Shown here piece by piece: positions 31,967 through 64,000 of a stretch of 64,000 bases of DNA. The stretch covers positions 10,155 through 74,154 of the forward strand of contig JAFDFZ010000016.1 of assembly GCA_019309565.1 (NCBI GenBank), in the 5' to 3' direction. The notes under the pieces were generated by a model. It made no database searches. It worked only from the letters and a program-made list of their open reading frames with translations, and was not told the DNA's origin. The first letter of the stretch is position 1, and each line of letters opens with the position of its first letter. This DNA is from Deltaproteobacteria bacterium. GTDB taxonomy: Bacteria > Desulfobacterota > Desulfobacteria > Desulfobacterales > SURF-15. The translations under genes were made by a program, and so were the position numbers.

Positions 31967-32022
31967 GGTAGGCCCACCTCAATTTTATAATACAGTTACA
32001 TCTACTCCCCTTTTTCCAAGCC

Positions 32023-35878: not shown

Positions 35879-36292
35879 TCATGAATCTTTTTTCTGCCCA
35901 AGGATGTCCTCAATAGCGGAGAGGAGTTTTTCCGGATCGATGGGTTTTTCAAAAAACATGGTGACCGGCCAATCCTCGCCCAAAATATGCTGGAACTTCT
36001 CCGGCCCTTCTTCGGCCATCTTTTTAGGAAACGAGGTCAAAATCAGGATAGGAATCTTTTTATATTCCGGGTTACGTTGAAGCTTGTAGGCAAGATCGAA
36101 TCCTTCCGTGTCCGTGGACATCATTACATCCAGGATGATTACATCCGGGACTTTTTTCTCTATCTCCGCGTATCCTTCCTTTCCGTTATAAGCGGCCCTT
36201 ACCTGGTACGCTTTGCTTTCGAGGACGATACGCATCGTGTCCACCAAATCCCTGTCATCCTCAATAATAAGGATGTCTGCTGGGTTTCCCAT
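35879..36292 (-). CDS. single-domain response regulator (REC only)
   Basis: IIEDD acidic pocket, phospho-acceptor in IILDVMM, and a conserved K in FEKP. AGGAG lies 6 nt upstream of the start. Confidence 0.88.
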   Translation of the reverse strand: MGNPADILIIEDDRDLVDTMRIVLESKAYQVRAAYNGKEGYAEIEKKVPDVIILDVMMSTDTEGFDLAYKLQRNPEYKKIPILILTSFPKKMAEEGPEKFQHILGEDWPVTMFFEKPIDPEKLLSAIEDILGQKKDS

Positions 36293-36803: not shown

Positions 36804-36806
36804 GGC

Positions 36807-38237: not shown

Positions 38238-38249
38238 CTTTTCATCTCC

Positions 38250-38792: not shown

Positions 38793-38836
38793 TGGATGAC
38801 CTCCATTTGTTAACAGATCCAAGAGTTCTTATTCTA

Positions 38837-40861: not shown

Positions 40862-40949
40862 CGGAGTTCCCCTTAACATTGTTTGATTCTATTGAAACCC
40901 ATATCATTCATGTCAAAAATGCAACCCTTGAGTATTCACCAATAGCCCC

Positions 40950-43625: not shown

Positions 43626-43640
43626 ATTTTACCTCCACGT

Positions 43641-45851: not shown

Positions 45852-45935
45852 GTGAATATCCTTTCTATTCAATCAATGACATGTGGGTACAAAAGGCAGC
45901 ACATGCATACCCTCCGGGACAAACACGGCTTGTTG

Positions 45936-46956: not shown

Positions 46957-47298
46957 ATGCATGAACTTTCCCTTGCGCAAAACATTATTGAAATTATTAC
47001 GGGAGAACTGTTGGAAAACGGCCTGACAAAGGTCGATACCATTACGCTAAAAATAGGGGAAATGGCGCAGGTACTGCCGGATTCGCTCCGCTTCGGCTTT
47101 GAGTGTCTGATCCGGGAAACTCCTCTTGAGGGGGTGAAACTGATCATCGAGATCGTTCCGGCGAAAGGTCGCTGCATGAGTTGCGGAAAAAATTTTATCA
47201 TTGAAAACCGGGAATTTATCTGCCCGGAGTGTGGAAAAGCCGGTATCGAAGTTCTCACCGGAAAAGAACTTGAAATCGTGGAATTGGAAGGCACCTAA
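46957..47298 (+). CDS. hypA: hydrogenase nickel-incorporation protein HypA
   Basis: MHELSLAQNIIE N-terminus and the zinc site CMSCG ... CPECG; 113 aa. The ORF-track start 46885 extends over the promoter. Confidence 0.92.
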   Translation: MHELSLAQNIIEIITGELLENGLTKVDTITLKIGEMAQVLPDSLRFGFECLIRETPLEGVKLIIEIVPAKGRCMSCGKNFIIENREFICPECGKAGIEVLTGKELEIVELEGT

Positions 47299-47317
47299 CA
47301 CGATAGGAGGCAGGCAA

Positions 47318-47986
47318 ATGAAGTTGATACTGGCCAGGGACGTTCTTGCGGCAAATGATAAAATTGCCGAACAGAACCACGCCCTGCTTTCGAGCAAAGC
47401 GGTAACCGCCATCAACGTGATGAGCTCGCCGGGTGCGGGCAAAACCACTCTGATTGCGGAAACCATTCGATCCTTGAAACAGGATCTGAATATTGCCGTC
47501 ATCGAAGGAGACATTCAGTCCACATACGATGCCGAGCAGATATCCGCAACAGGCGCTCAGGTGGTTCAGATCAATACCGGCGGTGCGTGCCACCTGGATG
47601 CCGGTATGATCAATGAATCATTGGGTCATATCGATCTGGATGCGGTGGATCTGCTGATCATTGAAAATGTCGGAAACCTTGTCTGCCCGGCTGGGTTTAA
47701 TCTCGGAGAAGGCTACAAGGTCATGCTGTTGAGTGTAACGGAGGGAGACGACAAACCGGTGAAGTACCCGATGATGTTTCACGAATCGAGCGCGCTGCTG
47801 ATCAACAAAATTGACCTCCTTCCCTATATTGAGTGCAGTGTCGAGAAAATCAGGACCGAAGCGCTGAAAATCAAACCGGATTTAGGCATCTTTGAAGTAT
47901 CCGCAAAAACCGGGAAGGGCCTGGACGACTGGTATCGATGGCTCAAGAAAATGGTGAGGCGCAATGGTACGCAGGATGAAAATTAG
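47318..47986 (+). CDS. hypB: hydrogenase nickel-incorporation GTPase HypB
   Basis: P-loop SSPGAGKTTLI and the NKIDL G4 motif. Start is at 47318 (AGGAGG at 47305-47310). Confidence 0.92.
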   Translation: MKLILARDVLAANDKIAEQNHALLSSKAVTAINVMSSPGAGKTTLIAETIRSLKQDLNIAVIEGDIQSTYDAEQISATGAQVVQINTGGACHLDAGMINESLGHIDLDAVDLLIIENVGNLVCPAGFNLGEGYKVMLLSVTEGDDKPVKYPMMFHESSALLINKIDLLPYIECSVEKIRTEALKIKPDLGIFEVSAKTGKGLDDWYRWLKKMVRRNGTQDEN

Positions 47987-50285: not shown

Positions 50286-50496
50286 GGATAATCAGGCACA
50301 GGTCGAAATCGGCGGAACTCGCCGGGAGGCCCGTCTGGATATCGTTGATCGCCCGCCCAGGGTGGGGGATTATGTGATCGTTCATGCAGGCTATGCGATC
50401 CATGTCATCGATGAACGAGAAGCAAAAGAGACTCTCGATTATTTTGAAGAGATGCTGTCCAAAAATGCTGAAACATCTGAGCGAATATCAGAATAA
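50248..50496 (+). CDS. hypC: hydrogenase assembly chaperone HypC
   Basis: MCLAVPMKI N-terminus with the essential Cys2; 82 aa. Confidence 0.9.
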   Translation: MCLAVPMKILKIKDNQAQVEIGGTRREARLDIVDRPPRVGDYVIVHAGYAIHVIDEREAKETLDYFEEMLSKNAETSERISE

Positions 50497-51550
50497 AAAT
50501 GTATGCCAAACCCTCGTAAAAAGGATTGAGGCCATCGTTCAAAAGCCGATTCGCATAATGGAAGTCTGCGGCACCCACACTATGTCGATTTCAAGGAACG
50601 GTATTCGCGGCCTGATGCCGGAGAGCGTCGCCCTGCTCTCAGGACCCGGCTGTCCGGTCTGTGTGACCTCACAGGTTGAAATCGATCGGTTTATTTGCCT
50701 TGCGAAACAAAAAGAGGTGACCATTACGACCTTCGGGGATCTGATGCGGGTACCGGGTTCGGAATCGTCACTGATTCAGGAACGGGCGTCGGGTGCGGAT
50801 ATTCGAATCATCTATTCCACCCTCGATGCCCTGGAAATTGCCCGCAATCACCCAAATCGGGAGATCGTGTTCCTGGGTGTCGGCTTCGAGACCACCGCGT
50901 CAACCGTTGCAGCCGTGGTTCTGGAGGCAACCAAGCAGGGTGTTTGGAATTTTTCCGTCATCTCTGCACACAAGCTCATCCCCCCTGCCCTCAAGGCGTT
51001 GATGGAAAACAATGCCGTGCGGATCGACGGATTTATTTGCCCGGGCCACGTGTCGGTAATCATAGGCGCTAAGGCTTATGTGCCGCTTGCGGAAACCTAC
51101 CGGGTTCCCTGCGTGGTGGCCGGGTTTGAACCGGCGGACATCCTGCAAGCCATCTATATGCTGGCAAAACAGATTGAATCTCAAACGGCAACCGTGGAGA
51201 TTGCATACCAACGCGGGGTATCCTTTGAAGGAAATGCCAGGGCCCGACAGGTAATTCATCGGGTATTTGAACCATGTGATGCACAATGGCGGGGGTTGGG
51301 GTGTATTGCTGAAAGCGGCCTGAAGTTCCGAGCGGAATACGGCCGGTTCGATAGCGAAAAAAAATTCGGCCTGCCTGTGGGTTCGGCATCGGAGCCGCGG
51401 GGGTGTTCCTGCGGCGATATTCTGATGGGGATCAAGTCGCCTACGCAGTGCGCACTGTATGCTAGGACTTGTACGCCGGCGCATCCCGTAGGGCCCTGCA
51501 TGGTATCCACGGAAGGAACCTGTGCGGCATATTACAAATACAGTATTTAG
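50465..51550 (+). CDS. hypD: hydrogenase maturation factor HypD
   Basis: CGTHT, GPGCPVCV, GFETT and PGHVS motifs. It overlaps hypC by 32 nt. Confidence 0.92.
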   Translation: MLKHLSEYQNKNVCQTLVKRIEAIVQKPIRIMEVCGTHTMSISRNGIRGLMPESVALLSGPGCPVCVTSQVEIDRFICLAKQKEVTITTFGDLMRVPGSESSLIQERASGADIRIIYSTLDALEIARNHPNREIVFLGVGFETTASTVAAVVLEATKQGVWNFSVISAHKLIPPALKALMENNAVRIDGFICPGHVSVIIGAKAYVPLAETYRVPCVVAGFEPADILQAIYMLAKQIESQTATVEIAYQRGVSFEGNARARQVIHRVFEPCDAQWRGLGCIAESGLKFRAEYGRFDSEKKFGLPVGSASEPRGCSCGDILMGIKSPTQCALYARTCTPAHPVGPCMVSTEGTCAAYYKYSI

Positions 51551-51593
51551 AACAGAGTAAACCACTAAATACCAAAATACTAAACACTCATTA

Positions 51594-52610
51594 TTGAAAA
51601 TGAATGCAAACAAAATACTTCTGGACCATGGCAGCGGTGGCCGGGCATCCCATGAACTGGTAAGAGAGATTATCTACCCGTATTTTGAAAATGCCATTCT
51701 GGCGCAAATGGATGACAGCGCTGTTTTCTCCATTGCCGATGAAAGGTTCGCCTTTTCGACCGATTCCTACGTGGTGGACCCCATCTTTTTCCCGGAAGGC
51801 AGCATCGGCAATCTGGCCGTAAACGGCACCGTAAACGATCTGGCCATGTGCGGAGCAAAACCGCTCTTTATCAGTGTCGGTTTTATCATTGAAGAGGGGT
51901 TTCCGCTGGAAGATCTTCAAAAAATACTGCGACACATGCAGCAGGCTGCACAGGAAGCAGATGTTAAAATCGTCACAGGCGATACCAAAGTGGTCTACAG
52001 CAAAGCGGCCGATAAAATATTCATCAACACATCCGGAATCGGAAGAATCCCGGACAGGGTAAATCTTTCAGGGGAAAATGCGGTGCCGGGGGATCGAATC
52101 ATCCTCAGTGGTACGGTGGCCGATCACGGAATCACCATTCTTACGCAAAGAGAAGGGCTCTGCATGGATTTTCCTTTAAAAAGCGATACCGCCCCGCTCA
52201 ATCACATGGTACAGAAAATTATCGAATCAAGCCGTCATGTCCACAGCCTGCGGGATCCCACCCGAGGCGGTGTTGCCACGTCTCTGAATGAAATCGCCGC
52301 TCAAGCCGGAGTCGGCATCATGATCGATGAAACGGCCATTCCGGTCCGGAGTGAAACCAGGGCGGCCTGTGAACTGCTTGGTCTGGACCCGCTGTACATA
52401 GCCAACGAAGGCAAACTTATCGCCTGTGTGGCTGCAGCGGATACAGAAGCCGTTCTGGCGGCGATCCGCACAAGTCCGTACGGTCAGGACGCACAAATAA
52501 TAGGTGAGGTAACGGCAGTGCATCGTGGAAAGGTATTCATGGAAACAGCTATCGGCGGGGCGCGCATCCTCGATATGCTCGCCGGCGAACAACTGCCCAG
52601 AATCTGTTGA
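51594..52610 (+). CDS. hypE: hydrogenase maturation factor HypE
   Basis: PurM-like fold, and a C-terminus ending in PRIC (the carbamoyl/cyano-carrying Cys). Confidence 0.92.
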   Translation: MKMNANKILLDHGSGGRASHELVREIIYPYFENAILAQMDDSAVFSIADERFAFSTDSYVVDPIFFPEGSIGNLAVNGTVNDLAMCGAKPLFISVGFIIEEGFPLEDLQKILRHMQQAAQEADVKIVTGDTKVVYSKAADKIFINTSGIGRIPDRVNLSGENAVPGDRIILSGTVADHGITILTQREGLCMDFPLKSDTAPLNHMVQKIIESSRHVHSLRDPTRGGVATSLNEIAAQAGVGIMIDETAIPVRSETRAACELLGLDPLYIANEGKLIACVAAADTEAVLAAIRTSPYGQDAQIIGEVTAVHRGKVFMETAIGGARILDMLAGEQLPRIC

Positions 52611-52653: not shown

Positions 52654-52679
52654 TTTACATGCTGTAAAAAAACTCGACA
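52654..52679 (+). promoter_or_regulatory. upstream activator-like dyad motif, copy 3 (TTTACATGCTGTAAAAAAACTCGACA)
   Basis: It lies 120 bp upstream of the sigma-54 element at 52774. Confidence 0.65.
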
Positions 52680-52773
52680 TCCGGTTTGTTCAGCCGGTCA
52701 GGTCCTGTTTTTGGCATTAAAATAATTTGACATCATTCCGGATAGTTCTACATTCATAGGTTTCTTTTCTCTG

Positions 52774-52788
52774 TGGCATGGACATTGC
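52774..52788 (+). promoter_or_regulatory. sigma-54 (-24/-12) promoter TGGCAT-N5-TTGC
   Basis: TGGCATGGACATTGC lies 36 nt upstream of ATG 52824. Confidence 0.65.
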
Positions 52789-52823
52789 TCTCCAGTAAAG
52801 AATATTACTGTAAGGGAAGAAAA

Positions 52824-53237
52824 ATGAGAGAGGGATTTACCATTCTTATCGCCGACCGGAATCCACACGTTCGTGAATTATTGAAGCGCGAAATGATAGC
52901 GGAAGGTTATAAAGTGCGGTTGGCTGAAAATGGACGGGACGTGCTGAAATGGTCTTACGATTCTAGCCCTCTCGATCTTTTGATTTTGGATCCGGATTTG
53001 CCGGACATCGATGAATCCGCTTTATTTGCACGGCTGGCCGATCGGATACCCGCTTTGCCGATGGTCATTCATACCTTTTTTTCAGATTTCGATGTTCCAT
53101 CGAGTACTTCAGGAACAGTCGCTTATGTGGAAAAAGGAGGAAGCAGCATCGAAAACCTGAAACAGGTTGTCACCAAGTTCCTGAACAAAGCCGATTTAGC
53201 AATATTTCAAAGAAAACAGAACCGGGTCAAGATCTAA
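52824..53237 (+). CDS. single-domain response regulator (REC only)
   Basis: ILIADRN ... LLILDPDLPD ... VIHTF ... VEKGG receiver pattern. Start is at 52824 (AAGGGAAG upstream); the ORF-track GTG 52773 overlaps the promoter. Confidence 0.8.
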   Translation: MREGFTILIADRNPHVRELLKREMIAEGYKVRLAENGRDVLKWSYDSSPLDLLILDPDLPDIDESALFARLADRIPALPMVIHTFFSDFDVPSSTSGTVAYVEKGGSSIENLKQVVTKFLNKADLAIFQRKQNRVKI

Positions 53238-53333: not shown

Positions 53334-53894
53334 TTAATCATTACGGGCACAGGCTTTTATTAAATGGAAAATCGCGGCAAATACATCGGTCAACCGTAAT
53401 ATGCCCACGATATGTTGCTTACGGGTGATCAGAAGTGATTGATATTGCCCCAGGACCAGCTGGTGAATGGCTTCATTCAGGGTGGTATCTTCATCCACAT
53501 GCTCACCCTCTGTGGGTTTATGCATGAAGTCTTTAACCTTCAGGGTGGCGGCTTTTTTGCAGATATCGCTCATGGCCCCGCTCCAGAGATCGTAATGGTC
53601 CATCAAGGATTTCATAAATTCCCTGGTCAGGCCGGAATGTGCCATGCCTTCCCGGCCCAGTACCCGTTCATATTTCGGCTCCAGCGCTTTGAGCACATCC
53701 AGCTGGCTTATCTTGCCGATAACTTGCTTGTTCTTATTCAGAACCAGTAATGCGCGGTGGCGATACCGGGTGTGGTCGAATGCTGCCTGAGCCTTTTCCA
53801 GGGCCATGACCGCTTCATATAAGGTGGCATCCTCAGGGACAGCGGCGTATTCCGATAGTGGAACCATCAAGTCTTTTACCATGGGATATTTCAC
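53334..53894 (-). CDS. CBS-domain pair protein
   Basis: Two CBS repeats (MVPLSEYAAVPEDATL ... GKISQLDVL; MHKPTEGEHVDEDTTL ... GILRLTDVF). Confidence 0.85.
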   Translation of the reverse strand: MKYPMVKDLMVPLSEYAAVPEDATLYEAVMALEKAQAAFDHTRYRHRALLVLNKNKQVIGKISQLDVLKALEPKYERVLGREGMAHSGLTREFMKSLMDHYDLWSGAMSDICKKAATLKVKDFMHKPTEGEHVDEDTTLNEAIHQLVLGQYQSLLITRKQHIVGILRLTDVFAAIFHLIKACARND

Positions 53895-54141
53895 TGTAAA
53901 ACTCTCCTCTCCTAGATGTACTTTATCTGGTTATATCCGGCCTTTGCCGTCTATGTTGAAGCAAACAGCATGCCACTTCAAATCGTTACGCTAAGAGGGG
54001 AAAACATACTGAATATAAAAATATTTTTTGTAAGCAACACCATTTTGGGAAAAAGATTACATGGGTGTTGTGTCGGTTTTTTTACAGCTTATAAAATTAT
54101 AATTTAGAATGCGTTATTAATATTAATTTTACGGCATCGCT

Positions 54142-54167
54142 TTTACAACTTGTAAAAAAACTCGACA
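54142..54167 (+). promoter_or_regulatory. upstream activator-like dyad motif, copy 4 (TTTACAACTTGTAAAAAAACTCGACA)
   Basis: It lies 120 bp upstream of the sigma-54 element at 54262. Confidence 0.65.
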
Positions 54168-54261
54168 AACTCCGGTTTTTTCAAAGATCCGATATTTCAC
54201 CTTTCTTTAAAATATATCCTAATTTCAAATAGTTACCTCTTTGTTAAGATGGGTTAAACCC

Positions 54262-54276
54262 TGGCATCCGGCTTGC
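54262..54276 (+). promoter_or_regulatory. sigma-54 (-24/-12) promoter TGGCAT-N5-TTGC
   Basis: TGGCATCCGGCTTGC lies 149 nt upstream of the kinase ATG 54425. Confidence 0.65.
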
Positions 54277-54424
54277 TGCAGTTTTTAACGCGCAGAAGGC
54301 ATTATCTGAATGATCTTCCCGGATGATGGCAATCGAAGTCGATGGGAGTTTTTGTGTAAAGGGTAAGGAATTAGCCTCGGAAGGAAAGGGATAAAGAGGG
54401 GACAGGGCCAATTAAGATGGATGT

Positions 54425-56179
54425 ATGAAAATGGCATTTGATATCGGGGGCATTAAAAGAACAACCAACGAAGTAGCCACACAAGAGAAAGGCAATGCAA
54501 AGACCGAGTCGTATTTCAGAAAGCTCCGATTGCGCCTCAAGTTAGGGCTGCTGGCGGCCTTTCTGATGCCGCTTGCTGCGCTATCTGCATATTTTCATTT
54601 TCAACTCGACGCGACTTTGAAAGAAAGCGGAAGACTACATCTGTCCGCCCTGGCTGAGAGCCAGAAAAACACCATCGATCTTTTTCTCCAGGAAAGGGTG
54701 GTCAACATCTTCCGCCTTTTTCACAGCGCTGAATTCAGCCTTTCCCCATCTGAAACGGATATGGATCGCTGCCTGCGAAACCTGAGACAGACAAGCGATG
54801 CCTTTATAGACGTGGGCTTTTTTGACCAAGAAGGCGTACAGATCGGTTATGCCGGCCCCTTTCCCTATCTCCATGGCAAGGATTACAGCCGGGAGGATTG
54901 GTTTAAAACCATTATGACGCTGAACCGAAATTACTATATCAGCGACATTTACCTGGGATTTCGAAACAAGCCTCACTTCACCATAGCGATCAAGCAGATG
55001 ATCGGCACAAAGCTCTATGTGATGCGAGCCACTCTAGACCCCGATAAGTTTTACATGTTTCTTCGCAATATCAGCAGAGGAAAGGGGGTTGACTCAGCTC
55101 TGATCAACAAGAAGGGGTATTACCAGGTGGTTGATCCGGACATGGGTAAACTGTTGGGGAAAAGCAAGTACTTACCATCAGGAAACGAACCTTCCGGGGT
55201 CGAAGAAATCACAAGAAATCATGACTCCATCCTGGTCGCATACGCCTGGCTCAAGGAAGCACCCTGGGTTCTGGTGGTCAGCCAGCCCTTCAGCTTAGCT
55301 TACGCGAAAATGTACCGGACACGGAAAATCATGATTGCGAGTACTATTCTGATCGTGGCGGCAATAGGGTTCGGGATCTGGATCGTAACCGACCGATTGG
55401 TTAAACGCGCCCAGGCAACTGTGGAATCAAGGGAGGAGTTACAGTCGCAATTGCTGCATGTCTCGAAGCTTGCATTGGTCGGTGAGCTGGCCGCAGGGAT
55501 TGCCCACGAAATAAACAATCCCCTGGCAATCATCGGTGCCACCATCGGGGTTATCAGGGACCTGTTTGACCCTCAATTCAATTTACCCTGGACTCCGAAA
55601 ACGATCGAACAGGAACTTACCATCATCGATTCAGCGGTGAACCGAGCCAGAAGCATCACTCAGCAGTTGCTGAATTTCTCGCGGAAAACCCCCCAACGGC
55701 TCATTTCGGGAAATGTCAACAAGATACTTGACGACGTGGTGTCAGGACTAATGGAAAAGGAGCTTGAGGTGGCCGATATCCGGCTGATCCGCGATTATGA
55801 CCCTGAGCTGCCGGAAATCCTTCTTGATCCTGACCAAATTGGCCAAGTTTTTTTCAACATTATCAAGAATGCGGCGGATGCCATTGAAAAATCGGGAACC
55901 ATCACCCTTTCCACCCGGCGGGATAACAAAACTGTCCGAGTAACCGTAACCGATACCGGTTCAGGTATGACCTCGGATCAGATGAAAAAAATATTCCTGC
56001 CCTTTTACACCAGCAAGGAAGTCGGAAAGGGAACCGGGCTTGGGCTCAGCGTCAGCTTGAGCATCGTTGAATCACTAGGAGGGAATATCGAGGTACAGAG
56101 CATGCCTGGCGCCGGAAGCTCGTTCACGGTGGTGTTGCCTGTCAGCAAATCGGAGGAAGCAAAAAATGGATCCAGTTGA
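54425..56179 (+). CDS. sensor histidine kinase (periplasmic Cache-like domain between two TM helices, HisKA, HATPase_c)
   Basis: H-box [13 protein letters not shown] box NIIKNAADA, and G boxes DTGSGM / GTGLGL. The extracytoplasmic segment carries the YYISDIYLGFRNKPHFTIAIK Cache-like signature. Confidence 0.88.
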   Translation: MKMAFDIGGIKRTTNEVATQEKGNAKTESYFRKLRLRLKLGLLAAFLMPLAALSAYFHFQLDATLKESGRLHLSALAESQKNTIDLFLQERVVNIFRLFHSAEFSLSPSETDMDRCLRNLRQTSDAFIDVGFFDQEGVQIGYAGPFPYLHGKDYSREDWFKTIMTLNRNYYISDIYLGFRNKPHFTIAIKQMIGTKLYVMRATLDPDKFYMFLRNISRGKGVDSALINKKGYYQVVDPDMGKLLGKSKYLPSGNEPSGVEEITRNHDSILVAYAWLKEAPWVLVVSQPFSLAYAKMYRTRKIMIASTILIVAAIGFGIWIVTDRLVKRAQATVESREELQSQLLHVSKLALVGELAAGIAHEINNPLAIIGATIGVIRDLFDPQFNLPWTPKTIEQELTIIDSAVNRARSITQQLLNFSRKTPQRLISGNVNKILDDVVSGLMEKELEVADIRLIRDYDPELPEILLDPDQIGQVFFNIIKNAADAIEKSGTITLSTRRDNKTVRVTVTDTGSGMTSDQMKKIFLPFYTSKEVGKGTGLGLSVSLSIVESLGGNIEVQSMPGAGSSFTVVLPVSKSEEAKNGSS

Positions 56180-58232
56180 GTCGAAGATGAGTGAAAAACC
56201 GGAAACAAAAGTCTTGTTGGTGGATGATGAAGACCAATTCCGCAAATCTTTGGCCCAGCAGCTTTCGGTAAGGGGATTTAAGGTGGAGGGGCTGAACAAT
56301 GGAAAAGACGCCATAAAATTTGTACGGCATGAAAATCCCGAGGTGGTGGTTCTGGACCAAAAAATGCCGGGTATGGACGGGATACAGACATTAAAAGAAA
56401 TAAAAAAAATAAGACCGGAGATCCAGGTGATTATGCTCACGGGCCACGGCAACACCGAAACGGCCAGAGTCACCGGCAAGTATGACGTGTTCTACTATCT
56501 GGAAAAACCGTGCAGTATCGATGAACTCATAGGCGTGATCGACGCGGCAAAGAAGGAGCGGGTTTACGCCCTGGCCCGGCATGAAATACCGGATGTAAAA
56601 AGAAGAGATCTGAAGCTGTGGCTTGTGGGCGCGCACAACTTTCGGCCCGGCCTGATTGCCCTGGGCATTATTCTTTTTACGGCGATTGCGGCCATGCCCA
56701 CTCCGAAAGGCCTCCTTGCGCTCGTCAGCCAGGAAAAATCCGGAACCCTTGGTGAAAAAATATCAGGATACTCCAACTACCGAAAAGTTGCACCCGGCCA
56801 GAATATTTCAGACTACTACACCTTCAAAACCGGATTGCATCAAAAGGTTAAAAAGCCGGATGGAACTGTTTCGAAAGTCCCTTTACGTCCGGAGCAGGTC
56901 GCTTTTCGGGCAAAGGTGATGATCGGCGTTTTACTCATCGCTGCGCTGTTCTGGGCGACCGGGGCTGTCCCTATCGGCATTACCGCGCTTTTAGTGGGTG
57001 TGATCATGTATTTCTTCGGAATCCTGCCGCCGAATCTGGTGGCTAAGGCCTATGCCAAGGACTCGGTGATTTTTATTTTCGGCGTGCTGGCAATGGCCGT
57101 TGCTATCGGTAATACCGGTCTTGACCGCCGAATCGGTCTTGTACTTTTAGGCACGAGCACCTCTCTTTCACGGTTCGCGTTTATCTTTGGACCGCTTCTG
57201 GCCATAACTGCCTCTTTTCTCTCCGAACATGCCCTGGTGGCGTTCCTGGCGCCGATATTGATTCTGGTTTATGGGGCTGCGATCCGGAGGGCAAACATTA
57301 CAAAAGATAAAAGCCTTGCGGTCATGATGCTTCTTATTCTTTCCTATTGCGGTAATGCCGGAGGACCGGGCTCTCCGGCAGCAGGCGGTCGCAATGCAGT
57401 TATGCTTGGTATTCTATCCGACTACGGCATGTCTGTCTCCTTTAGCCAATGGCTTAAAATGGGATTACCCTTCGTACCGGTAATGGCGCTTGTCACTGCT
57501 GCGTATTTTTTTCTGGCGTTTAAGAGAAAAATCAAGGTTAAGAATCTTGACATTGCTGAAGAGGTGAAGCGAGAAGCGGAAAAGATCGGCAAAATGACCT
57601 TTGATGAGTACAAGGCCGCCGCCGTGCTGGTGCTTCTGGTGGTGTTATGGGCCACCGCATCCGATCGGTTCGGAATGGGCGGTCCGGTACTGCTGTGTAT
57701 CGTCCTGTCAAACATCCTGGGCATTATCCGCTGGCGGGACATCAACAGCATCAACTGGGATGTTGTGGCCCTCTATGGTGCGGCCAGCGCCATGGGGTAT
57801 GGGCTTGCGATTACGGGGGCCGCGCTTTGGCTGGCCGACAGCTTCGTAGGTCTTCTTCCCGATTCATTGACCCGCGGCACCGGGCTTTTGATTTCCTGCA
57901 GTTTTATTACCGGTATTCTCACCAACTTCATGAGCGACGGGGCCACCGTGGCTGCTGTTGGGCCCATCACGGTGCCCATGGCCACGCTGTCCGGAACATC
58001 GCCGATCATGGTAGGGCTGGCGACATCCTTTGCGTCTTCTTTCGCTCATGTGTTGATCATCGGAACGCCTAACAATGCCATTGCCTACAGCATGGGGAAA
58101 GATCCGGAGACCGGAGAGCAGTTGTTGACCATGAAAGATTTTTTTGTCCACGGGTCCGTGGTCTTTGTATTGAGTCTTGGTGTGCTGTGGGTTTGGGTGT
58201 TTTGGGGGTATTGGAAATGTATAAGCATTTAA
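56166..58232 (+). CDS. fusion protein: N-terminal receiver (REC) domain plus SLC13/DASS-family anion:cation symporter
   Basis: REC: LLVDDEDQF ... VVVLDQKMPGMDG ... IMLTGHG ... LEKPC. The permease half has more than 10 TM helices and the SLC13 signature region SSFAHVLIIGTPNNAIAY. The gene overlaps the kinase gene by 14 nt. Confidence 0.85.
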   Translation: MDPVESKMSEKPETKVLLVDDEDQFRKSLAQQLSVRGFKVEGLNNGKDAIKFVRHENPEVVVLDQKMPGMDGIQTLKEIKKIRPEIQVIMLTGHGNTETARVTGKYDVFYYLEKPCSIDELIGVIDAAKKERVYALARHEIPDVKRRDLKLWLVGAHNFRPGLIALGIILFTAIAAMPTPKGLLALVSQEKSGTLGEKISGYSNYRKVAPGQNISDYYTFKTGLHQKVKKPDGTVSKVPLRPEQVAFRAKVMIGVLLIAALFWATGAVPIGITALLVGVIMYFFGILPPNLVAKAYAKDSVIFIFGVLAMAVAIGNTGLDRRIGLVLLGTSTSLSRFAFIFGPLLAITASFLSEHALVAFLAPILILVYGAAIRRANITKDKSLAVMMLLILSYCGNAGGPGSPAAGGRNAVMLGILSDYGMSVSFSQWLKMGLPFVPVMALVTAAYFFLAFKRKIKVKNLDIAEEVKREAEKIGKMTFDEYKAAAVLVLLVVLWATASDRFGMGGPVLLCIVLSNILGIIRWRDINSINWDVVALYGAASAMGYGLAITGAALWLADSFVGLLPDSLTRGTGLLISCSFITGILTNFMSDGATVAAVGPITVPMATLSGTSPIMVGLATSFASSFAHVLIIGTPNNAIAYSMGKDPETGEQLLTMKDFFVHGSVVFVLSLGVLWVWVFWGYWKCISI

Positions 58233-58259
58233 AGTTAATTTTGAATGAAGGAGAAAACC

Positions 58260-58748
58260 ATGTCGAAGGAAAAAATCAATCTTTTACTCGTGGACGACGA
58301 AGAACAGTTTCTGAGATCGACCACCAAAAGACTGGAAGTAAGGAACTTTAATGTCATTGCCGTTGACAGAGGCGATAAGGCCATCGAGGCTGCGAGGAAA
58401 CATCCCATTGACATCGCCTTGGTCGATTTGAAAATGCCTGGCATGGACGGAGAAGGGACCCTTAAAGCCTTGAAAGCGGAGCACAAGTGGATGGAAGTGG
58501 TGATTCTAACCGGGCACGGGTCAATCGATTCGGCAGTCGAGTGCACCAAGGGCGGGGCATATTCATACCTGCAAAAGCCTTGTGAGTTTGACCGCCTCCT
58601 TGAGACGCTTACCGAAGCGTATAAAAAAAAGGTCATGAACAAAATGAAAATACGCGAGGAAAAAATGGATGAATTGCTCAAAATGAGTGCCTCTGGCTCT
58701 ACGCTGGCTCTTCTGGAAAAGATAAAAGAAATGGATAAGGAAATATGA
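58260..58748 (+). CDS. single-domain response regulator (REC plus short C-terminal helix)
   Basis: LLLVDDEEQF ... ALVDLKMPGMDG ... VILTGHG ... LQKPC. Start is at 58260 (AAGGAG 7 nt upstream). Confidence 0.88.
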   Translation: MSKEKINLLLVDDEEQFLRSTTKRLEVRNFNVIAVDRGDKAIEAARKHPIDIALVDLKMPGMDGEGTLKALKAEHKWMEVVILTGHGSIDSAVECTKGGAYSYLQKPCEFDRLLETLTEAYKKKVMNKMKIREEKMDELLKMSASGSTLALLEKIKEMDKEI

Positions 58749-58759
58749 AGGAATAAGGT

Positions 58760-60457
58760 TTGAAAAACGATCGTTTCAGAAAAACCCGGCACATGATTCT
58801 GATTCGGGGGCTGAGTGCACCTTTCATCACCCTCATGCTGGTGTGTGGAATACTGGTGTACTATTTTGCCGCTTATTCACGCGAACAGGTGGAGACGAAA
58901 CTGGTACGGATCGCATCGGACCACAGCCAATTGATAGATCAATTTCTCGAGGAGAGAGCGCTGGATCTGCAATTTGCAGCTTCGTTTTGCAGTATCAAGG
59001 AAATATCCAAACAGGAGCGGCTGAGGTTACTCTTCCGCAACCTCATATCAAGATCTCGGGCGTTTTTCGATCTCGGAGTGTTCGATGAAAATGGAAACCA
59101 CCTGGCTTATGTCGGGCCTTATGACCTTGCCGGGAAGAATTATGCGGATACCGTATGGTTCAAGGCTGTTGAGCACACAGGACGTTATATTTCCGATGTA
59201 TTTTTGGGTTATCGCAACATCCCGCACTTCATCATAGCAATCCGTCGGGATGAAGGTGACCGGACCTGGTATTTGAGGGCCACCATGGATACGCTTTTCT
59301 TCAATGACCTTGTGGAGAATATCCGTGTGGGAAAATCCGGCGAAGCTTACCTTGTCAACCGGAAGGGCATATTACAAACCAAGCGCCGTTCAGGCGGCAG
59401 CTTAATGGAGCCGGATGTGGATTACGGTTTTTATCAGATCGACAATGATCGGAGTGTCTCATTTTTCACGGGCAAGCATTCGAATCGGCGGTATCTTTAT
59501 GCTGTGAGTTGTCTGAAACAGACCGGATGGATCCTGGTAATGAAACAGGAAGTGAGCGATGCCTTTGCTCCCTTAACCCGCGCGGTCCTGGTTGCGGTCA
59601 TCTTAATAGTGATTGGAGGTGCAGTGGCTGTTACAATGGCCTATATCCTGGCCTCGGGCCTGGCAAACCGGCTTACCCTTGCGGACATTGAGAAGCGACA
59701 GATGAAAACCCAATTGGTCATGGCCGGAAAGTTTGCAGAGATCGGAGAGATGAGCACGGCACTGGCCCATGAAATCAATAATCCACTCCAGGTGATGAAG
59801 GCGGAGCATATGTTGATCCAAGAACTCATCTCGGACGTTGAAAAGAGCACTCCGTCTCCTGATCCGGAGCCCATACGTATGATCAAAGACTCCGTGGAAC
59901 AAATCGATATTCAAATTGAGCGATGCAAGCGCATCACCCAGGGACTGTTGAATTTTGCACGCAAAACCGATGCCGTGATGAAACCTGTGAAGATGCAGGA
60001 ATTCCTGCCTGAAATGGTAAGGATGGTAGAACAAAAGGCACTTGTGGAAAATGTTCGCATCATCCAGAAACTCGATCCCGACATGACCGCGATCATAAGC
60101 GAACCAAACCAACTACAACAGGTTTTTCTAAACCTCCTGAACAACGCCATCTATGCGCTCAAAGGCAGGGATTCCGCAGAAATTCGGATCAATGTCTTTC
60201 GTGAAGACGCCTTCATAAACGTATCGATAGCCGACAACGGATGCGGGATTCCTCCGGAGAATATGGAAAAAATTTTCCTTCCTTTTTTCACCACCAAACC
60301 ACCTGGGCAAGGGACAGGTCTTGGGCTCAGCACGGTTTATGGAATCGTAAAGGGGTTGGGTGGGGATATTACAGTAACCAGTGAATTAAATACAGGATCC
60401 GTGTTTAACGTGCGCCTGCCGTTGAAACCGGCCGAGAAGGAAGAGAACAAGCACTGA
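58760..60457 (+). CDS. sensor histidine kinase, paralogue of 54425-56179
   Basis: Same architecture as the first kinase, including the Cache-like [21 protein letters not shown]-box [13 protein letters not shown] boxes DNGCGI / GTGLGL. TTG start. Confidence 0.85.
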
Positions 60458-60483
60458 CGTTTTTATTAAAGAGAGAGGATAAA

Positions 60484-60930
60484 ATGGCGACCATAAAATT
60501 ATTACTGGTGGATGACGAGGAGAGGTTTCTAAATACGACCAAGATCCTTCTGGAAAAGAGAGGGGTTGTAACTTTTACCGCCACCAACGGCGCTGATGCC
60601 CTGAAAGTTATGGACGAACATCGCATTGACGTCGTCGTTCTGGATGTGAAGATGCCGGGCATCGATGGAGTGGAAGTGCTTCGCAAGTCCAAGCAAAAAC
60701 ACCCGCTGGTGGAGGTTATTATGCTCACCGGCCATGCTTCGGTGGAATCGGCTGTCGAAGGATTAAAACTGGGAGCCTTCGATTACGTTAAAAAACCCTG
60801 CGACATTTCCGATCTGATCGCAAAGGTAAACGAGGCGTATGACAGAAAACATGCCATGGAAGAAAAAATTCGCAAAGCACAAATAGACAAAATCATCCGG
60901 CATCCCATGGCGGTATTTGAGAAAGAATAA
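60484..60930 (+). CDS. single-domain response regulator (REC only)
   Basis: LLLVDDEERF ... VVVLDVKMPGIDG ... IMLTGHA ... VKKPC. Confidence 0.88.
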   Translation: MATIKLLLVDDEERFLNTTKILLEKRGVVTFTATNGADALKVMDEHRIDVVVLDVKMPGIDGVEVLRKSKQKHPLVEVIMLTGHASVESAVEGLKLGAFDYVKKPCDISDLIAKVNEAYDRKHAMEEKIRKAQIDKIIRHPMAVFEKE

Positions 60931-61009
60931 GCAATTTTCGGTTTGCTCCGGTATTAGGAAAGGCGGCTTTGAAGCGGACATTTTTTCGCGGAGAAAAGGA
61001 GAGTAGAAA

Positions 61010-62863
61010 ATGACCGAGGAAACAACGCGAAAGGCGACCGGTTACGATAAGTATGTAGATTGGAAACTGTTTAGTATCCCTGTGGCGCTCTTTTTTCTTA
61101 TTCTGATTCTACCCACCCCATATGGTATGAAGGATGTCGGCACCGAATATCAGGTGGGACCCAAAGCAGTGGTGAATCACATCACCCGGGCGCTCTTTAA
61201 CCAGGAGAGCCCCGATGTTGCGCAGTGGCAGCTTCTCACCGCCAAAATAATGGAGCAAAATATGCGGATGGGGGCGCTAAGCAAAGAAAGCTTTTTAGCA
61301 CGAAATTTAAAGTGGTGTAAAAAATACAAAATCCAGGCGGATGCCAAAAATCTTAAAACAGCACGCCGGTATATTACAGAAAATGTTGCCGATGAAGCCT
61401 TTGCCGACATTATGATGAAATCCCTTGAGCTTCGACGGGATAGACTCAAATACGAAAATTTGTCCGAAAGGGAAAAAAAGGCGGCGGACAAGGGCGCATG
61501 GCACATTAAAGTGGCCATTGCCATGGTGGTGTTTGTGGTCTTCTGTTTTCTGACGGAATGTATCCCGTTGCCGGGTGTGGCGTTTTGTGTGGGATTGATC
61601 CTGGTTTTTACCGGTGTAGTCACGCGAAGCGAAGTGGCCATGTTGTACTGGAGCGACGCCTGTTGGTTTATCATGGGCAGTCTCATGTTTGCAGCAGCCT
61701 TTGTGAAAACCGGTGTGGACAAAAGAGTTTGCCTGATCCTTTTCAGGAAACTGGCGGTTCCAAATGTGCGGTGGATTACCATGATCCTTTTCGTCATCAT
61801 TTCGCCCTGTGCGTCGTTTATTTCGGACCACGCCCTGGCTGCCATGTTTCTTCCCATAGGCATGCTTCTTTACCAGAACAGTTTAACCCGCGAGGTGCCC
61901 GAGGATCCCGAACTGGCCAAGATACTCATGATCACCATCGCCATGGCATGCAACATCGGCGGTTTCGGGGCTCCGTCGGGCGGTGCACGAAACGTGATCA
62001 TGATTACCTACCTGAGTGACATGTTCGGCTTTGATATCGGTTATTTTCAATGGGTCAGCTATGCCATACCCTTTGTTCTGATAATGATCCCCATTACCTG
62101 GCTTGTCACCAACTGGCGGTTTAAACCGATAGTGACATCCTTGACACCGGCCTTGGACCAATTAAGATATGAAATCAGCAGGATGGGCGGCTGGAATCGG
62201 AAGCAGATTATCGCCCTGGCGATTTTCCTGGTCATGCTGTGGGGTTGGTTCACGGAAAAGATCTTTTACAATCTCGGTATTTATCCGGTGCGCCTCGGCA
62301 TCGGTGTGATCGCCCTGGCCGGAGCGGTGGCTTATCTTCTGGCCGGTGTGGTGAACTGGCGGGATTACCAGGAAAAAGTGGATTGGGGCGTGGTCTGGCT
62401 CTACGCCGGTGCCATCATCTTCGGCCGAACCCTTGACAAGACAGGAGCGGCCTATTGGCTGGCCCGAACCTGCATCGACGCCCTGACTCCTCTGGGGATG
62501 GATTCCGGAATACCGTTGATGTTGGTAAATAACGGCCTGACCGCCTCCCTGACCAATTTGATGGCGGATGGTCCGGCAGCAGCGGCTGTGGGGCCCATTT
62601 CCCTGAATATGGCCGGTCTGGTTCACCCCGGAACCACGTTTCTTCCTTTCATGGCTATGGGCACCGCGGCTGCATCTTCCTTTGCCTATTGCCTGATCAT
62701 CGGGACCCCGCCCAATGCCATCGTCTATGCCAGCGGGTATCTCGAACCCAGGGACTTCCTCAGAATCGGGGTGATCATGTGGGTGATCGCCAATATTGTT
62801 TTGATTCTTCTAACCATGATATATTGGATAAATAGGGGGTTCGGGGATCTGCCGGGATTCTGA
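61010..62863 (+). CDS. SLC13/DASS-family anion:cation symporter (no REC domain), paralogue of the permease half of 56166-58232
   Basis: SLC13 signature SSFAYCLIIGTPPNAIVYASG. A ~140-aa soluble insert follows TM1, as in the fused paralogue. AAGGAG lies upstream of the start. Confidence 0.88.
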   Translation: MTEETTRKATGYDKYVDWKLFSIPVALFFLILILPTPYGMKDVGTEYQVGPKAVVNHITRALFNQESPDVAQWQLLTAKIMEQNMRMGALSKESFLARNLKWCKKYKIQADAKNLKTARRYITENVADEAFADIMMKSLELRRDRLKYENLSEREKKAADKGAWHIKVAIAMVVFVVFCFLTECIPLPGVAFCVGLILVFTGVVTRSEVAMLYWSDACWFIMGSLMFAAAFVKTGVDKRVCLILFRKLAVPNVRWITMILFVIISPCASFISDHALAAMFLPIGMLLYQNSLTREVPEDPELAKILMITIAMACNIGGFGAPSGGARNVIMITYLSDMFGFDIGYFQWVSYAIPFVLIMIPITWLVTNWRFKPIVTSLTPALDQLRYEISRMGGWNRKQIIALAIFLVMLWGWFTEKIFYNLGIYPVRLGIGVIALAGAVAYLLAGVVNWRDYQEKVDWGVVWLYAGAIIFGRTLDKTGAAYWLARTCIDALTPLGMDSGIPLMLVNNGLTASLTNLMADGPAAAAVGPISLNMAGLVHPGTTFLPFMAMGTAAASSFAYCLIIGTPPNAIVYASGYLEPRDFLRIGVIMWVIANIVLILLTMIYWINRGFGDLPGF

Positions 62864-62904: not shown

Positions 62905-63057
62905 ATGGAACCAAAAAAAGGCGAACAAAGAATAAAGCGACCGGTTTATCAAAACGGTAAAATCTATTTTAACCGGGCAACCGAGCGGAAGTTTTTCTTT
63001 GCACTGACAATCATCATGCTGCTGGCCGTTGTCCTGACAAAGGCCGGGCTGTTTTAG
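62905..63057 (+). CDS. small single-TM protein (50 aa), not in ORF track
   Basis: ATG at 62905 with GGAGG at 62892-62896. Product: MEPKKGEQRIKRPVYQNGKIYFNRATERKFFFALTIIMLLAVVLTKAGLF. It starts 41 nt after the DASS permease stop. Confidence 0.4.
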   Translation: MEPKKGEQRIKRPVYQNGKIYFNRATERKFFFALTIIMLLAVVLTKAGLF

Positions 63058-63141: not shown

Positions 63142-63591
63142 GTGTTTTTCAGCCACCTGCCCTCTGACATGGGAATTTTGCCACCGCTTGGGTTTCTCTG
63201 CCTGTCCGGACTGATATTTTCTGCCGCCAGGCTGACCCTCACCATGCCGGCAAGCCCCCTGGTGTGGGGAGTCATTTGGCTGATCAATGCGGTTGGAATG
63301 GCACTGGTCGCAGCGGCTGTCGGGTACATGACGATGGTGATGATTTTAGGCAGGCAGATAACGTTCCAACGATTTTTCAGCGTCTACGCCCTGTCGGCCG
63401 GACTTACTCTGCTTGTCTCTTGGCCCCCGTTTTTTTTCTGGGTCACCGAATCCTGGAAATGGTGGCTCATCGGGGTGGGGTTGACAAGCGGGTTTGGCGT
63501 CAGACCGGCACAGGCAGCGTTGATCATCGGCACATCCATTGTTGTTATCGTGCTGTTTTTCCAGTCTCTATTAGCGGTTATTTCTTGTTGA
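63142..63591 (+). CDS. hypothetical integral membrane protein (about 4 TM)
   Basis: Hydrophobic segments run throughout. The start is uncertain (GTG 63142 or ATG 63169), and there is no clear Shine-Dalgarno sequence. Confidence 0.5.
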   Translation: MFFSHLPSDMGILPPLGFLCLSGLIFSAARLTLTMPASPLVWGVIWLINAVGMALVAAAVGYMTMVMILGRQITFQRFFSVYALSAGLTLLVSWPPFFFWVTESWKWWLIGVGLTSGFGVRPAQAALIIGTSIVVIVLFFQSLLAVISC

Positions 63592-63646: not shown

Positions 63647-64000
63647 ATGAGCGACAAAATAAGAGTATTAATGGTCGATGACGAGGCGCAGTTTCGGGCC
63701 ACCACCAGAAAAATCCTGAACAGAAAAGGATTTGACACTCGCCTGGCAGCCAGCGGCGAAGAGGCCCTGGAAAAGCTCCATGAAAACCCGGATGTGGTGA
63801 TTCTTGATATAAAAATGCCCGGTATGGACGGCCACCAGGTCTTGAGGGAGATCAAAATCCGCTATCCGGATCTGCCGGTCATCATGCTTACCGGGCACGG
63901 GGCGCTGCCGTCTGCTATGGAGGCTCTGGATCAGGGGGCTTTTGATTACCTGTCAAAGCCGTGTGACGTAAACCTGCTTGCCGCCAGGATAAAAGATGCG
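63647..64000 (+). CDS. response regulator, N-terminal REC domain only visible (runs off right edge; may continue into an output domain)
   Basis: ATG at 63647 (GGAGG at 63634-63638). MSDKIRVLMVDDEAQF ... VVILDIKMPGMDG ... IMLTGHG ... LSKPC; the frame stays open to base 64000. Confidence 0.85.
   Translation, partial: MSDKIRVLMVDDEAQFRATTRKILNRKGFDTRLAASGEEALEKLHENPDVVILDIKMPGMDGHQVLREIKIRYPDLPVIMLTGHGALPSAMEALDQGAFDYLSKPCDVNLLAARIKDA

Follow-up and report, generated by a model that had tools for sequence, protein, structure and literature searches.

Organization of the locus

A stretch of 64,000 nucleotides (nt) from a Deltaproteobacteria bacterium of the Desulfobacterales (assembly GCA_019309565.1, contig JAFDFZ010000016.1, positions 10,155 to 74,154 of the forward strand), hereafter called the window, carries a gene in which a receiver domain of the two-component type (REC) is joined to a permease of the DASS/SLC13 family (TC 2.A.47). 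This fusion gene belongs to a cluster made of two modules. In the first, a histidine kinase precedes the fusion, which is followed by a REC-only protein; in the second, a kinase, a REC-only protein and a permease are encoded one after the other. The original prediction, made from the letters of the window, held that the receivers act directly on the permeases, and that transport is gated by phosphorylation rather than by transcription. All the gene coordinates given there are correct, and each motif quoted was found: VVLDQKMPGMDG, LTGHG and KPC of the fused receiver, and the permease motifs SSFAHVLIIGTPNNAIAY and SSFAYCLIIGTPPNAIVY. The genes of the cluster are the following.

52824-53237, + strand: REC0, stand-alone, partly degenerate receiver (Pfam Response_reg, 43 bits; residue comparison)
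53334-53894, - strand: CBS-pair protein, 186 amino acids (aa), divergent from the operon (Pfam CBS, two stretches, 3e-14)
54425-56179, + strand: HK1, membrane sensor histidine kinase (Pfam dCache_1, HisKA and HATPase_c; two transmembrane (TM) helices)
56166-58232, + strand: REC-DASS fusion gene, 688 aa (Pfam Response_reg and Na_sulph_symp)
58245-58748, + strand: REC2, REC-only, 167 aa, with a helical tail of ~40 aa (Pfam; catalytic residues intact)
58760-60457, + strand: HK2, paralogous dCache histidine kinase (Pfam; 33% identity to HK1)
60484-60930, + strand: REC3, REC-only, 148 aa (Pfam, 3e-31)
61010-62863, + strand: DASS2, unfused DASS permease, 617 aa (Pfam Na_sulph_symp, aa 169-607; TIGR00785)
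62905-63057, + strand: small protein of 50 aa with one hydrophobic helix (translation)
63169-63591, + strand: Yip1-like polytopic membrane protein, 140 aa (weak Pfam Yip1 match, 0.0016, below the gathering score)
63647-64000, + strand: REC-CBS, 5′ part, cut by the window end (Pfam REC, 4e-33)

The genes of the operon overlap or stand 11-79 nt apart, and a search for intrinsic terminators within it gave terminator-like sites at the level of the shuffled background. The 3′ end of HK1, stop codon included, overlaps the start of the fusion gene by 14 nt; the dCache_1 domain of this kinase is periplasmic. A sister contig (L081; designations of the type L081 or P0248 are our own handles) is 98.3% identical to the window over 10.1 kb and extends beyond the window end. 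There, REC-CBS is a protein of 301 aa composed of REC and CBS, and a start at 58793 is preferred by the gene caller for HK2. The likely start of REC0 is the ATG at 52824, within an open reading frame (ORF) of 52773-53237. Its acidic pocket reads A-D-R, with the second Asp changed to Arg, and its K-P has become K-G; the catalytic residues of a receiver are thus not all present.

Pairwise comparison gave 33% identity between HK1 and HK2 and also between the two permease cores, 43% between the fused receiver and REC3, and 38% between the fused receiver and REC2. By these values the two modules are old paralogues, and module 2 is, as predicted, a true paralogue of module 1 in which receiver and permease are separate genes.

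The REC-DASS fusion is genuine

One possibility was that a sequencing or assembly error had joined a receiver gene to a permease gene, in which case a real stop codon or a frameshift would be expected between about 56550 and 56650. None is present. The reading frame is continuous across this junction, without stop codon or frame change, and the ORF listing agrees with the domain scan on a single uninterrupted ORF of 688 aa. The sole error-prone site, a run of eight A around 56403, is in frame, and its translation fits the family consensus KEIKKIRPE. Two samples yielded JGI contigs that encode exactly this 688-aa protein, which NCBI also has on record. In addition, the best 120 homologues all have, according to their Pfam content of three combined families, REC plus DASS at about 688 aa (69-91% identity), and the complete genome of an isolate, Desulfobacula toluolica Tol2, encodes a 691-aa REC-DASS orthologue. 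An artefact was therefore rejected, its probability being practically nil.

Five related loci carry copies that look split (L043, L046, L047, L049 and L050). Each of them consists of several overlapping fragments, which we read as frameshift errors and not as natural splits.

An intact receiver and a conserved linker

The N-terminal part of the fusion protein comprises two segments.

56208-56555, + strand: receiver domain, aa 15-130 (Pfam Response_reg aa 16-125, 4e-27, 94.9 bits)
56556-56645, + strand: conserved linker, aa 131-160 (residue frequencies; low AlphaFold confidence)

Every residue required of a phospho-acceptor is present: D20, D21, D64, T92 and K114 are invariant in alignments of 71 and of 45 family members, with Tyr or Phe at position 111. 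A loss of acceptor function, which would have contradicted the prediction, is therefore not apparent in the 71 homologues. The catalytic residues are likewise invariant in the REC2, REC3 and REC-CBS classes of related loci. Alternating strands and helices are predicted for the fused receiver, with a long helix alpha5 (aa 118-139). Its closest matches are the NtrC1 and DctD receivers, and Foldseek aligned it to the NtrC1 receiver (1zy2) with a target-normalised TM-score of 0.80-0.88. D64 is the predicted phosphorylation site, and HK1 would be the cognate kinase, as judged from adjacency, from the 14-nt gene overlap and from the specificity residues described below.

The linker is nearly as conserved as the receiver itself, the frequency of the major residue being 0.76 in the linker, 0.82 in REC and 0.61 in the loop insert of the permease (see below). 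Positions E140, I141, P142, G155, R160 and P161 are invariant, and G155, R160 and P161 are retained even in fusions of only 29-33% identity. The linker motif of the family, whose members measure about 690 aa, can be written G...RPG. The AlphaFold model of the fusion protein has a mean pLDDT (predicted local distance difference test) of 80.9 and a pTM (predicted template modelling score) of 0.69, and the receiver is modelled with confidence. Domain scan and structure prediction of 56166-58232 thus both recover REC plus SLC13.

Topology and substrate site of the permease

The C-terminal part was divided as follows.

56646-56705, + strand: DASS TM1, aa 161-180, ending in an MPTP motif (helix 161-176, pLDDT ~90)
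56706-56888, + strand: small alpha/beta domain of ~60 aa in the TM1-TM2 loop, aa 181-241 (pLDDT 82-91)
56889-58229, + strand: DASS/SLC13 core, aa 242-688 (Pfam Na_sulph_symp aa 242-686, 2e-35)

Against a Pfam Na_sulph_symp cutoff of 27, the fusion scores 122.9 bits and DASS2 161 bits. With NCBIfam TIGR00785 (cutoff 198.6) DASS2 lies above the threshold at 218.8 and the fusion below it at 173.1. The core of the fusion matches VcINDY at 1e-24, and the model superimposes on NaCT and VcINDY with target-normalised TM-scores of 0.79-0.81 (Foldseek, E ~1e-16) and on NaS1 with about 0.8. On this basis it is assigned the DASS fold, which consists of 11 TM helices and two re-entrant hairpins in an inverted repeat. 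The hairpin tips and the unwound segments of TM5 and TM10 are invariant among the aligned family members; the unwound TM5 segment contains an invariant Arg (GGRN).

The assignment of TM1 determines on which side of the membrane the receiver lies. Helix 242-265 was considered as TM1 and rejected, as it would put the receiver in the periplasm or invert the carrier. Helix 161-176 was retained because VcINDY has 40 residues before the aligned block and because the xPTP motif is shared: MPTP of the fusion TM1 is LPTP in DASS2. Characterised DASS/SLC13 carriers are dimeric elevator transporters whose N-terminus is inside the cell. By analogy with their N-in, C-out topology, we infer that the receiver is cytoplasmic and that the insert of aa 181-241 is periplasmic. 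The TM6-7 loop is rich in Lys and Arg, which is consistent with a cytoplasmic receiver. In DASS2, TM1 spans aa 18-33 and the TM1-TM2 loop holds a helical insert of ~115 aa (aa 38-150, 61121-61459), predicted by AlphaFold with a pLDDT of 84-94 over most of its length. The two inserts are of different kinds, alpha/beta in the fusion and all-helical in DASS2, and Pfam returned no match for either. They might contact the dCache domains of the kinases.

The fusion shares its fold with VcINDY and with human NaS1 (SLC13A1), NaDC1, NaDC3 and NaCT, and the SLC13 signature near TM10 is present. It differs from these characterised carriers, to which it is ~22% identical and which have no receiver domain, by the additional folded domain in the TM1-TM2 loop and by its substrate site. 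The hairpin tips are S353-E354-H355 and S590-D591-G592 in the fusion and S-D-H (aa 272-274) and A-D-G (aa 519-521) in DASS2, in place of S-N-T, which is found at both tips of VcINDY and at the first tip, the sole one aligned, of NaS1 and NaDC3. Neither of the two window permeases carries S-N-T. Since these motifs are replaced, the substrate or the coupling ion may differ from those of known members, and the substrate cannot be assigned from the binding-site motifs. It is probably an inorganic anion. Sulfate is a proposal of the literature, based on expression and proteome data, that the sequence does not establish, and the REC-DASS family is also found in lineages not known as sulfate reducers.

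A family spread over several phyla, with natural variants

A scan of species-representative genomes gave 79 loci, including 44 full-length fusions, in Desulfobacterota, Planctomycetota, Acidobacteriota, Ignavibacteriales, Zixibacteria, Methylomirabilota and Myxococcota; these taxon names are labels of metagenome-assembled genomes, some of which may be wrong. Of 38 loci testable on the upstream side, 33 have a dCache kinase as the immediate neighbour of the fusion; five more have it one gene further away, the intervening gene being of the CBS type in the Ignavibacteria and Zixibacteria loci. Over the 44 fusion loci the order kinase, REC-DASS, REC is kept in about 90%. Directly downstream, a REC-only gene (~162 aa) was found in 39/42 testable loci, and a complete module 2 follows the fusion in 10/29. 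The survey proposed with the original prediction thus showed a widespread REC-SLC13 architecture in the same neighbourhood, kinase before and REC-only gene after, across several phyla. CBS genes adjoin these DASS genes in many related loci.

Homologues 61-91% identical to the window copy keep the same length and the same Pfam content. At least five full-length REC plus DASS representatives, at 61, 47, 43, 39 and 31% identity, were recovered from a library with clustering at 50% identity. The fusion is old, because separate representatives reach down to 31%. Its permease clade is monophyletic, and every fused representative at 50% clustering falls inside it. Three fusions labelled as planctomycete (L003, L012, L019) are 72-74% identical to the window copy, like Desulfobacterales ones, which suggests either that the module moved horizontally from one phylum to another or that contigs were mis-binned.

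Three kinds of variants were found around this clade. The nearest unfused relatives (L074, L075, P0251, P0254) have no receiver, and those with a visible gene context have a CBS gene upstream. P0252 is a Usp-DASS protein of 692 aa, with a Usp (universal stress protein) domain in the place of the receiver and a permease 49% identical by phmmer. Finally, the receiver of the P0248 fusion is a pseudo-receiver, with NC for the DD of the acidic pocket and Glu for the acceptor Asp; the RP motif of the linker and the permease are kept. The existence of Usp, pseudo-receiver and receiver-less variants argues that the N-terminal module acts on the permease to which it is attached and that it is exchangeable.

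These variants bear on a reading in which the signal would run in the reverse direction. The permease would be a co-sensor and the tethered receiver a phosphate sink or competitor, draining phosphoryl groups from HK1, perhaps according to the transport state, and so setting the supply of REC2 and other receivers, with transport itself ungated. Co-sensing by a transporter and a kinase is established for DctA/DcuS and PstSCAB-PhoU/PhoR, and CbrA and CrbS offer further precedents. The cluster encodes five receivers for two kinases, a REC-only gene nearly always follows the fusion, and the loop inserts of both permeases, if periplasmic, would sit beside the dCache domains. A sink, however, needs an acceptor Asp, and the P0248 lineage has lost the pocket, carries Glu and still keeps the domain, which argues against a pure sink role. 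Usp, which replaces the receiver in a related DASS, is not a phosphotransfer module; the strong conservation of the linker fits a mechanical coupling to the permease; and REC2, the supposed beneficiary, is likewise without known output. On balance we consider the reverse direction clearly unlikely.

Receiver classes and the possible regulation of DASS2

The original prediction had deduced from the fused copy that the free receiver of module 2, REC3, acts on DASS2. The split copy is real, and the deduction from it is suggestive only: no receiver fused to a DASS2-type permease was found among the best 120 DASS2 homologues, and REC-CBS is an equally good candidate, because it adjoins DASS2-type permeases in nearly all the loci inspected. 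REC-CBS, alone or with stand-alone CBS or Usp proteins, would then be the regulator of DASS2, with REC3 as a phosphorelay partner or sink. CBS pairs are gating modules of transporters such as MgtE and OpuA. An interaction between a CBS protein and a DASS permease was also proposed for a related cluster (PMC11887813). Gene order offers further points for this view, as REC-CBS stands directly upstream of the permease in L007 and L021, a CBS gene directly upstream of the closest unfused relatives of the fusion (L074, L075), and another between kinase and fusion in the Ignavibacteria and Zixibacteria loci. On the other hand, the gene immediately before a DASS2-type permease is a REC-only gene in 9/11 loci and REC-CBS in the other two, and the fusion of module 1 shows that a bare receiver can be the module attached to a permease. 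REC3 and REC-CBS could also act together. Assigning DASS2 to REC-CBS with REC3 in an accessory role is thus possible, though rather unlikely.

The receivers form coherent classes according to their position, with 58-70% identity within classes (66% for the REC2 class) and 35-46% between most of them; the fused receivers are 38% identical to the REC3 class and 42% to the REC-CBS class, and so stand no nearer to the former. Five positions of helix alpha1 reportedly govern partner choice in two-component systems, according to work of the Laub laboratory. At the third of these the fused receiver and REC2 have Ala or Ser, with a polar residue at the fifth, whereas REC3, REC-CBS and the N-terminal receiver of hybrid HK1 proteins (see below) have Thr at the third and Leu or Ile at the fifth. 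The pattern F, T, K, then L or I is common to REC3 and REC-CBS, and HK2 could therefore feed both. HK1 and HK2 themselves differ in the first helix of the DHp (dimerization and histidine phosphotransfer) domain. Together, these residues suggest two insulated groups, in which HK1 would serve the fused receiver and REC2, and HK2 would serve REC3 and REC-CBS. Congruence of the receiver and permease trees was tried as a test of co-evolution; the trees disagree, which supports neither side.

Hybrid forms of HK1 with an additional receiver at the N-terminus (REC, dCache, HisKA, HATPase) are encoded in L008 (7902-9947), in L080 (7911-9956) and in about 14 further loci. Window HK1 has no such receiver, and the separate, degenerate REC0 gene lies upstream instead. 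The N-terminal receiver of the hybrid kinases is intact and of a class resembling REC3, not REC0, which hints that HK2 could feed into HK1.

A probable sigma-54 transcription layer

Exact matches to the sigma-54 consensus TGGCAY-N5-TTGCW were searched for over the whole 64-kb window. Only three were found, all of them in intergenic positions of the cluster (0.21 expected; none of 100 shuffles reached three). They are accompanied by upstream elements.

52654-52680, + strand: activator-type element CTTTACATGCTGTAAAAAAACTCGACA with a TGT-N11-ACA dyad, lying ~105 nt before the REC0 promoter
52774-52789, + strand: sigma-54 -24/-12 element TGGCATGGACATTGCT before REC0 (exact consensus match)
53960-53975, - strand: sigma-54 -24/-12 element TGGCATGCTGTTTGCT before the CBS gene (exact match, 66 nt upstream of the CBS start codon)
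54076-54100, - strand: upstream activator-type element of the CBS promoter, inverted copy of 54141-54167 (inverted repeat and alignment)
54141-54167, + strand: upstream activator-type element TTTTACAACTTGTAAAAAAACTCGACA of the operon promoter (repeat and alignment; conserved in D. toluolica and other loci)
54224-54236, + strand: IHF-like (integration host factor) box TTCAAATAGTTAC between activator element and promoter (direct repeat; second copy 53977-53989)
54262-54277, + strand: sigma-54 -24/-12 element TGGCATCCGGCTTGCT heading the operon (exact match)

The element shared by all three promoters, about 105 nt upstream of each, has the form TTTAYA-N4-TGTAAAAAAAC..GACA and includes the TGT-N11-ACA dyad. 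At two of the three promoters we found a TTCAAAT.GTTAC box, a putative IHF site. In other genera, including Desulfobacula (D. toluolica) and those of several metagenomic loci, dyad and box recur ahead of the operon; the boxes of related loci have similar sequences (TTTCA.ATAGTTA). Over 54 related loci sigma-54 elements are found at about 12 times the chance rate (taken from the window shuffles), 15 of the 33 matches lying within 400 nt upstream of dCache kinase genes, and the HK1 orthologue has an exact match within 600 nt upstream in 10/45 testable related loci.

No sigma-54 activator was found among the window ORFs scanned. L081, however, encodes at 11424-14326, that is ~1.3-4.2 kb past the window end and beginning ~0.8 kb after REC-CBS, a 4HB_MCP kinase and an NtrC-type activator (REC, Sigma54_activat, HTH_8). 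The absence of a DNA-binding regulator from the window is therefore probably an effect of the window edge. L001 has the same pair next to its cluster, and about ten loci encode proteins of comparable size. From these data the 4HB_MCP kinase and the NtrC-type response regulator are likely the transcriptional regulators of the cluster, which very probably constitutes a sigma-54 regulon. The statement that none of the five receivers at 52.8-64 kb has a DNA-binding output domain is thus literally true, with the reservation that the fifth is cut by the window edge and that REC0 is degenerate. The opposition of phosphorylation to transcription, in contrast, does not hold in view of the three promoters and their shared putative activator site: gating by phosphorylation should be understood as coming in addition to transcriptional control.

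Control might even be purely transcriptional. The receivers without output would then modulate only the NtrC-type activator or the kinases, and that of the fusion would be inert with respect to the permease. The sigma-54 promoters with their common putative activator site fit this possibility, as does the NtrC-type pair in the sister contig and in about ten related loci. The cluster has also been read as transcriptionally controlled (PMC11887813), and sulfate-dependent expression of related DASS genes has been reported (Tarpgaard 2017, cited in PMC5840216). An inert receiver is nevertheless hard to explain, because a fusion of constant length, with an invariant active site and linker, has been maintained in several phyla and down to 31% identity. 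We therefore regard purely transcriptional control as highly unlikely.

Surroundings of the cluster

Two other candidates for a regulator of the cluster were rejected: the 476-aa ORF at 36807-38237, tried as a DNA-binding regulator, proved to be a NiFe-hydrogenase subunit, and an unrelated kinase of the GAF/PilS-like type is encoded at 33842-35734. Both belong to a block of redox genes on the minus strand (28049-45872). This block includes an ORF resembling a NiFe-hydrogenase large subunit, two proteins resembling molybdopterin oxidoreductases or formate dehydrogenases with NuoG-type Fe-S domains, a NuoF-like flavoprotein, Hdr-like CCG and Fe-S proteins, and the GAF histidine kinase with its PilS-like 6-TM domain. 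Directly upstream of the cluster, at 47201-52610, lies a hydrogenase-maturation cluster with a HypB-like GTPase (CobW/HypB/UreG Pfam match), followed by ORFs which we take to be HypF, HypC (starting with MCLAVP), HypD and HypE.

Relation to known systems

The closest described relative is the D. toluolica Tol2 protein CCK80087.1 (UniProt K0NN26), which is 71% identical to the window fusion over its 691 aa and has the same REC plus DASS architecture. Gene order in D. toluolica is that of the window up to REC-CBS, the small and the Yip1-like proteins included; the HK1 orthologue differs in having the extra N-terminal receiver that window HK1 lacks. K0NN26 has borne the name "Response regulator modulated sodium/sulfate symporter" since the annotation of that genome, the name being annotation only. 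From gene position and length it is probably TOL2_19410, a protein placed in DASS group Cii, where lengths reach 691 aa (Marietou 2018, PMC5840216). TOL2_19410 and TOL2_19470 were both detected in the membrane proteome, and D. autotrophicum induces its group Cii DASS genes when sulfate falls below 100 uM (PMC5840216).

The type of cluster has been described in Desulfosarcina variabilis and other Desulfobacteraceae (PMC11887813, Sci Adv 2025). The D. variabilis cluster is of the same kind, with DASS, cache-domain kinases, response regulators, CBS, Usp and REC-CBS; all of these except Usp were found in the window, for which no Usp gene appeared in the portion examined. DASS2 shares 79% identity with the "sodium/sulfate symporter" of D. 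variabilis, and module 2 is syntenic, yet no REC-DASS fusion occurs in the 22 kb read. The DASS proteins of D. variabilis are abundant and constitutive, and the regulators were called WalR-type transcription factors acting on expression (PMC11887813). In the window, by contrast, no DNA-binding domain is present in the receivers adjacent to the permeases, and sigma-54 elements mark the promoters. The receiver domain is mentioned in the main text of neither PMC5840216 nor PMC11887813.

The window, D. toluolica and D. variabilis all have the 50-aa one-helix protein and the Yip1-like protein encoded between DASS2 and REC-CBS. In L080, L081 and L083 a gene of 50-54 aa occupies the position matching that of the window 50-aa protein, and the D. 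toluolica protein at the position of the Yip1-like gene is also called Yip1.

Fusion of a regulatory domain to a transporter of this fold has a eukaryotic counterpart. The yeast proteins Pho90, Pho87 and Pho91 have an N-terminal cytoplasmic SPX domain on a DASS-fold phosphate transporter, in the position of the fused receiver, and the SPX domain regulates transport post-translationally. Pho90 structures (8r33-8r35) were among the Foldseek matches of the membrane part of the fusion, with ~18% identity. Proteins of the Pho90 type offer the closest functional analogy; this is likeness and not membership, as SPX senses inositol pyrophosphates and does not accept phosphate, and as no SPX was recognised in the fusion.

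Other systems share one feature or another. CheY-FliM, DivK and CpdR act by protein contact, and AmtB-GlnK is a case of a transporter plugged on its cytoplasmic face by a signalling protein. The targets of these receivers include no DASS permease, GlnK is a PII protein, and the module 1 receiver differs in being covalently attached. In CbrA and CrbS (SLC5/STAC) a transporter domain is fused to a two-component protein, as here, but it is carried by the kinase as an input, whereas in the fusion the transporter occupies the output-domain position of a receiver. A literature search for receiver-transporter fusions found only SLC5-domain kinases and no report of a characterised receiver-gated transporter. 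The novelty suggested by the original prediction is overstated in view of the K0NN26 name and of the cluster type in PMC11887813.

A two-level model

Taken together, the sequence data are best accounted for by regulation at two levels, sigma-54 transcription and receiver control of the fused permease, to which we attribute a probability of roughly 55%. At the first level, three sigma-54 promoters would drive REC0, the CBS gene and a long operon (HK1, REC-DASS, REC2, HK2, REC3, DASS2, the 50-aa gene, the Yip1-like gene and REC-CBS), under an NtrC-type response regulator paired with the 4HB_MCP kinase. At the second level, two dCache kinases sensing the periplasm would phosphorylate receivers without DNA-binding output. 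The module 1 receiver precedes TM1 of the permease, presumably a dimeric elevator-type DASS, and is tied by the conserved linker to the cytoplasmic end of this helix. Phosphorylation of D64 would alter the seating of receiver and linker on the cytoplasmic face of the permease, or the pairing of the two receivers of the dimer, so that transport would be switched on or off within seconds. In module 2, control of DASS2 would be exerted in trans via REC3, REC-CBS or both.

Direct post-translational control of the permease is the most economical reading of the second level. It is favoured because the linker is conserved, because Usp can replace REC, and because a pseudo-receiver has been retained. 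The broader proposal, that REC-DASS is the first response regulator with a secondary transporter as output and that the free REC and REC-CBS proteins act likewise in trans, is more tentative, with chances a little short of even.

Several points speak against this model and temper it. The literature search found no functional test of receiver phosphorylation, or of its effect on transport, in any member of the family. The linker has a pLDDT below 50 at aa 140-158, and the structure model does not place the docking of the receiver. The hairpin tips are acidic (SEH, SDG) where the solved sulfate and dicarboxylate carriers compared have SNT. Five receivers for two kinases would also fit a phosphate sink or branched signalling. 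The receiver and permease trees are not congruent, and the fused receiver is closest (50%) to free receivers encoded before a third DASS type of ~526 aa, the type most distant from the permease of the fusion. The extension to module 2 rests on adjacency, as no REC-fused DASS2 was found. Finally, the NtrC-type activator is seen in the sister contig and not in the window itself.

Significance

The family is annotated, described at the level of the cluster and widespread, and the window copy adds one member to it. The label "sulfate symporter" which it bears rests on indirect evidence, because the substrate-site motifs differ from those of all the characterised DASS carriers compared here. Dissimilatory sulfate reduction begins with sulfate uptake, a step that affects its rate and whose regulation is poorly understood; reviews still infer the sulfate transporters from genomics and expression data. 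Response regulators nearly always act on DNA, enzymes or protein partners. Gating of a transporter, if true, would constitute a new class of output and would give a simple model, open to test, for the control of an elevator mechanism by a signalling domain. For such tests the family is practical, since it is large and multi-phylum, includes cultivated strains (D. toluolica Tol2) and provides natural control variants in its unfused, Usp-fused and pseudo-receiver forms. On the present sequence evidence, the cluster is most likely regulated both by sigma-54 and post-translationally. Should this be true, sulfate reducers and other anaerobes would possess a fast post-translational valve for anion uptake, set atop sigma-54-dependent expression.

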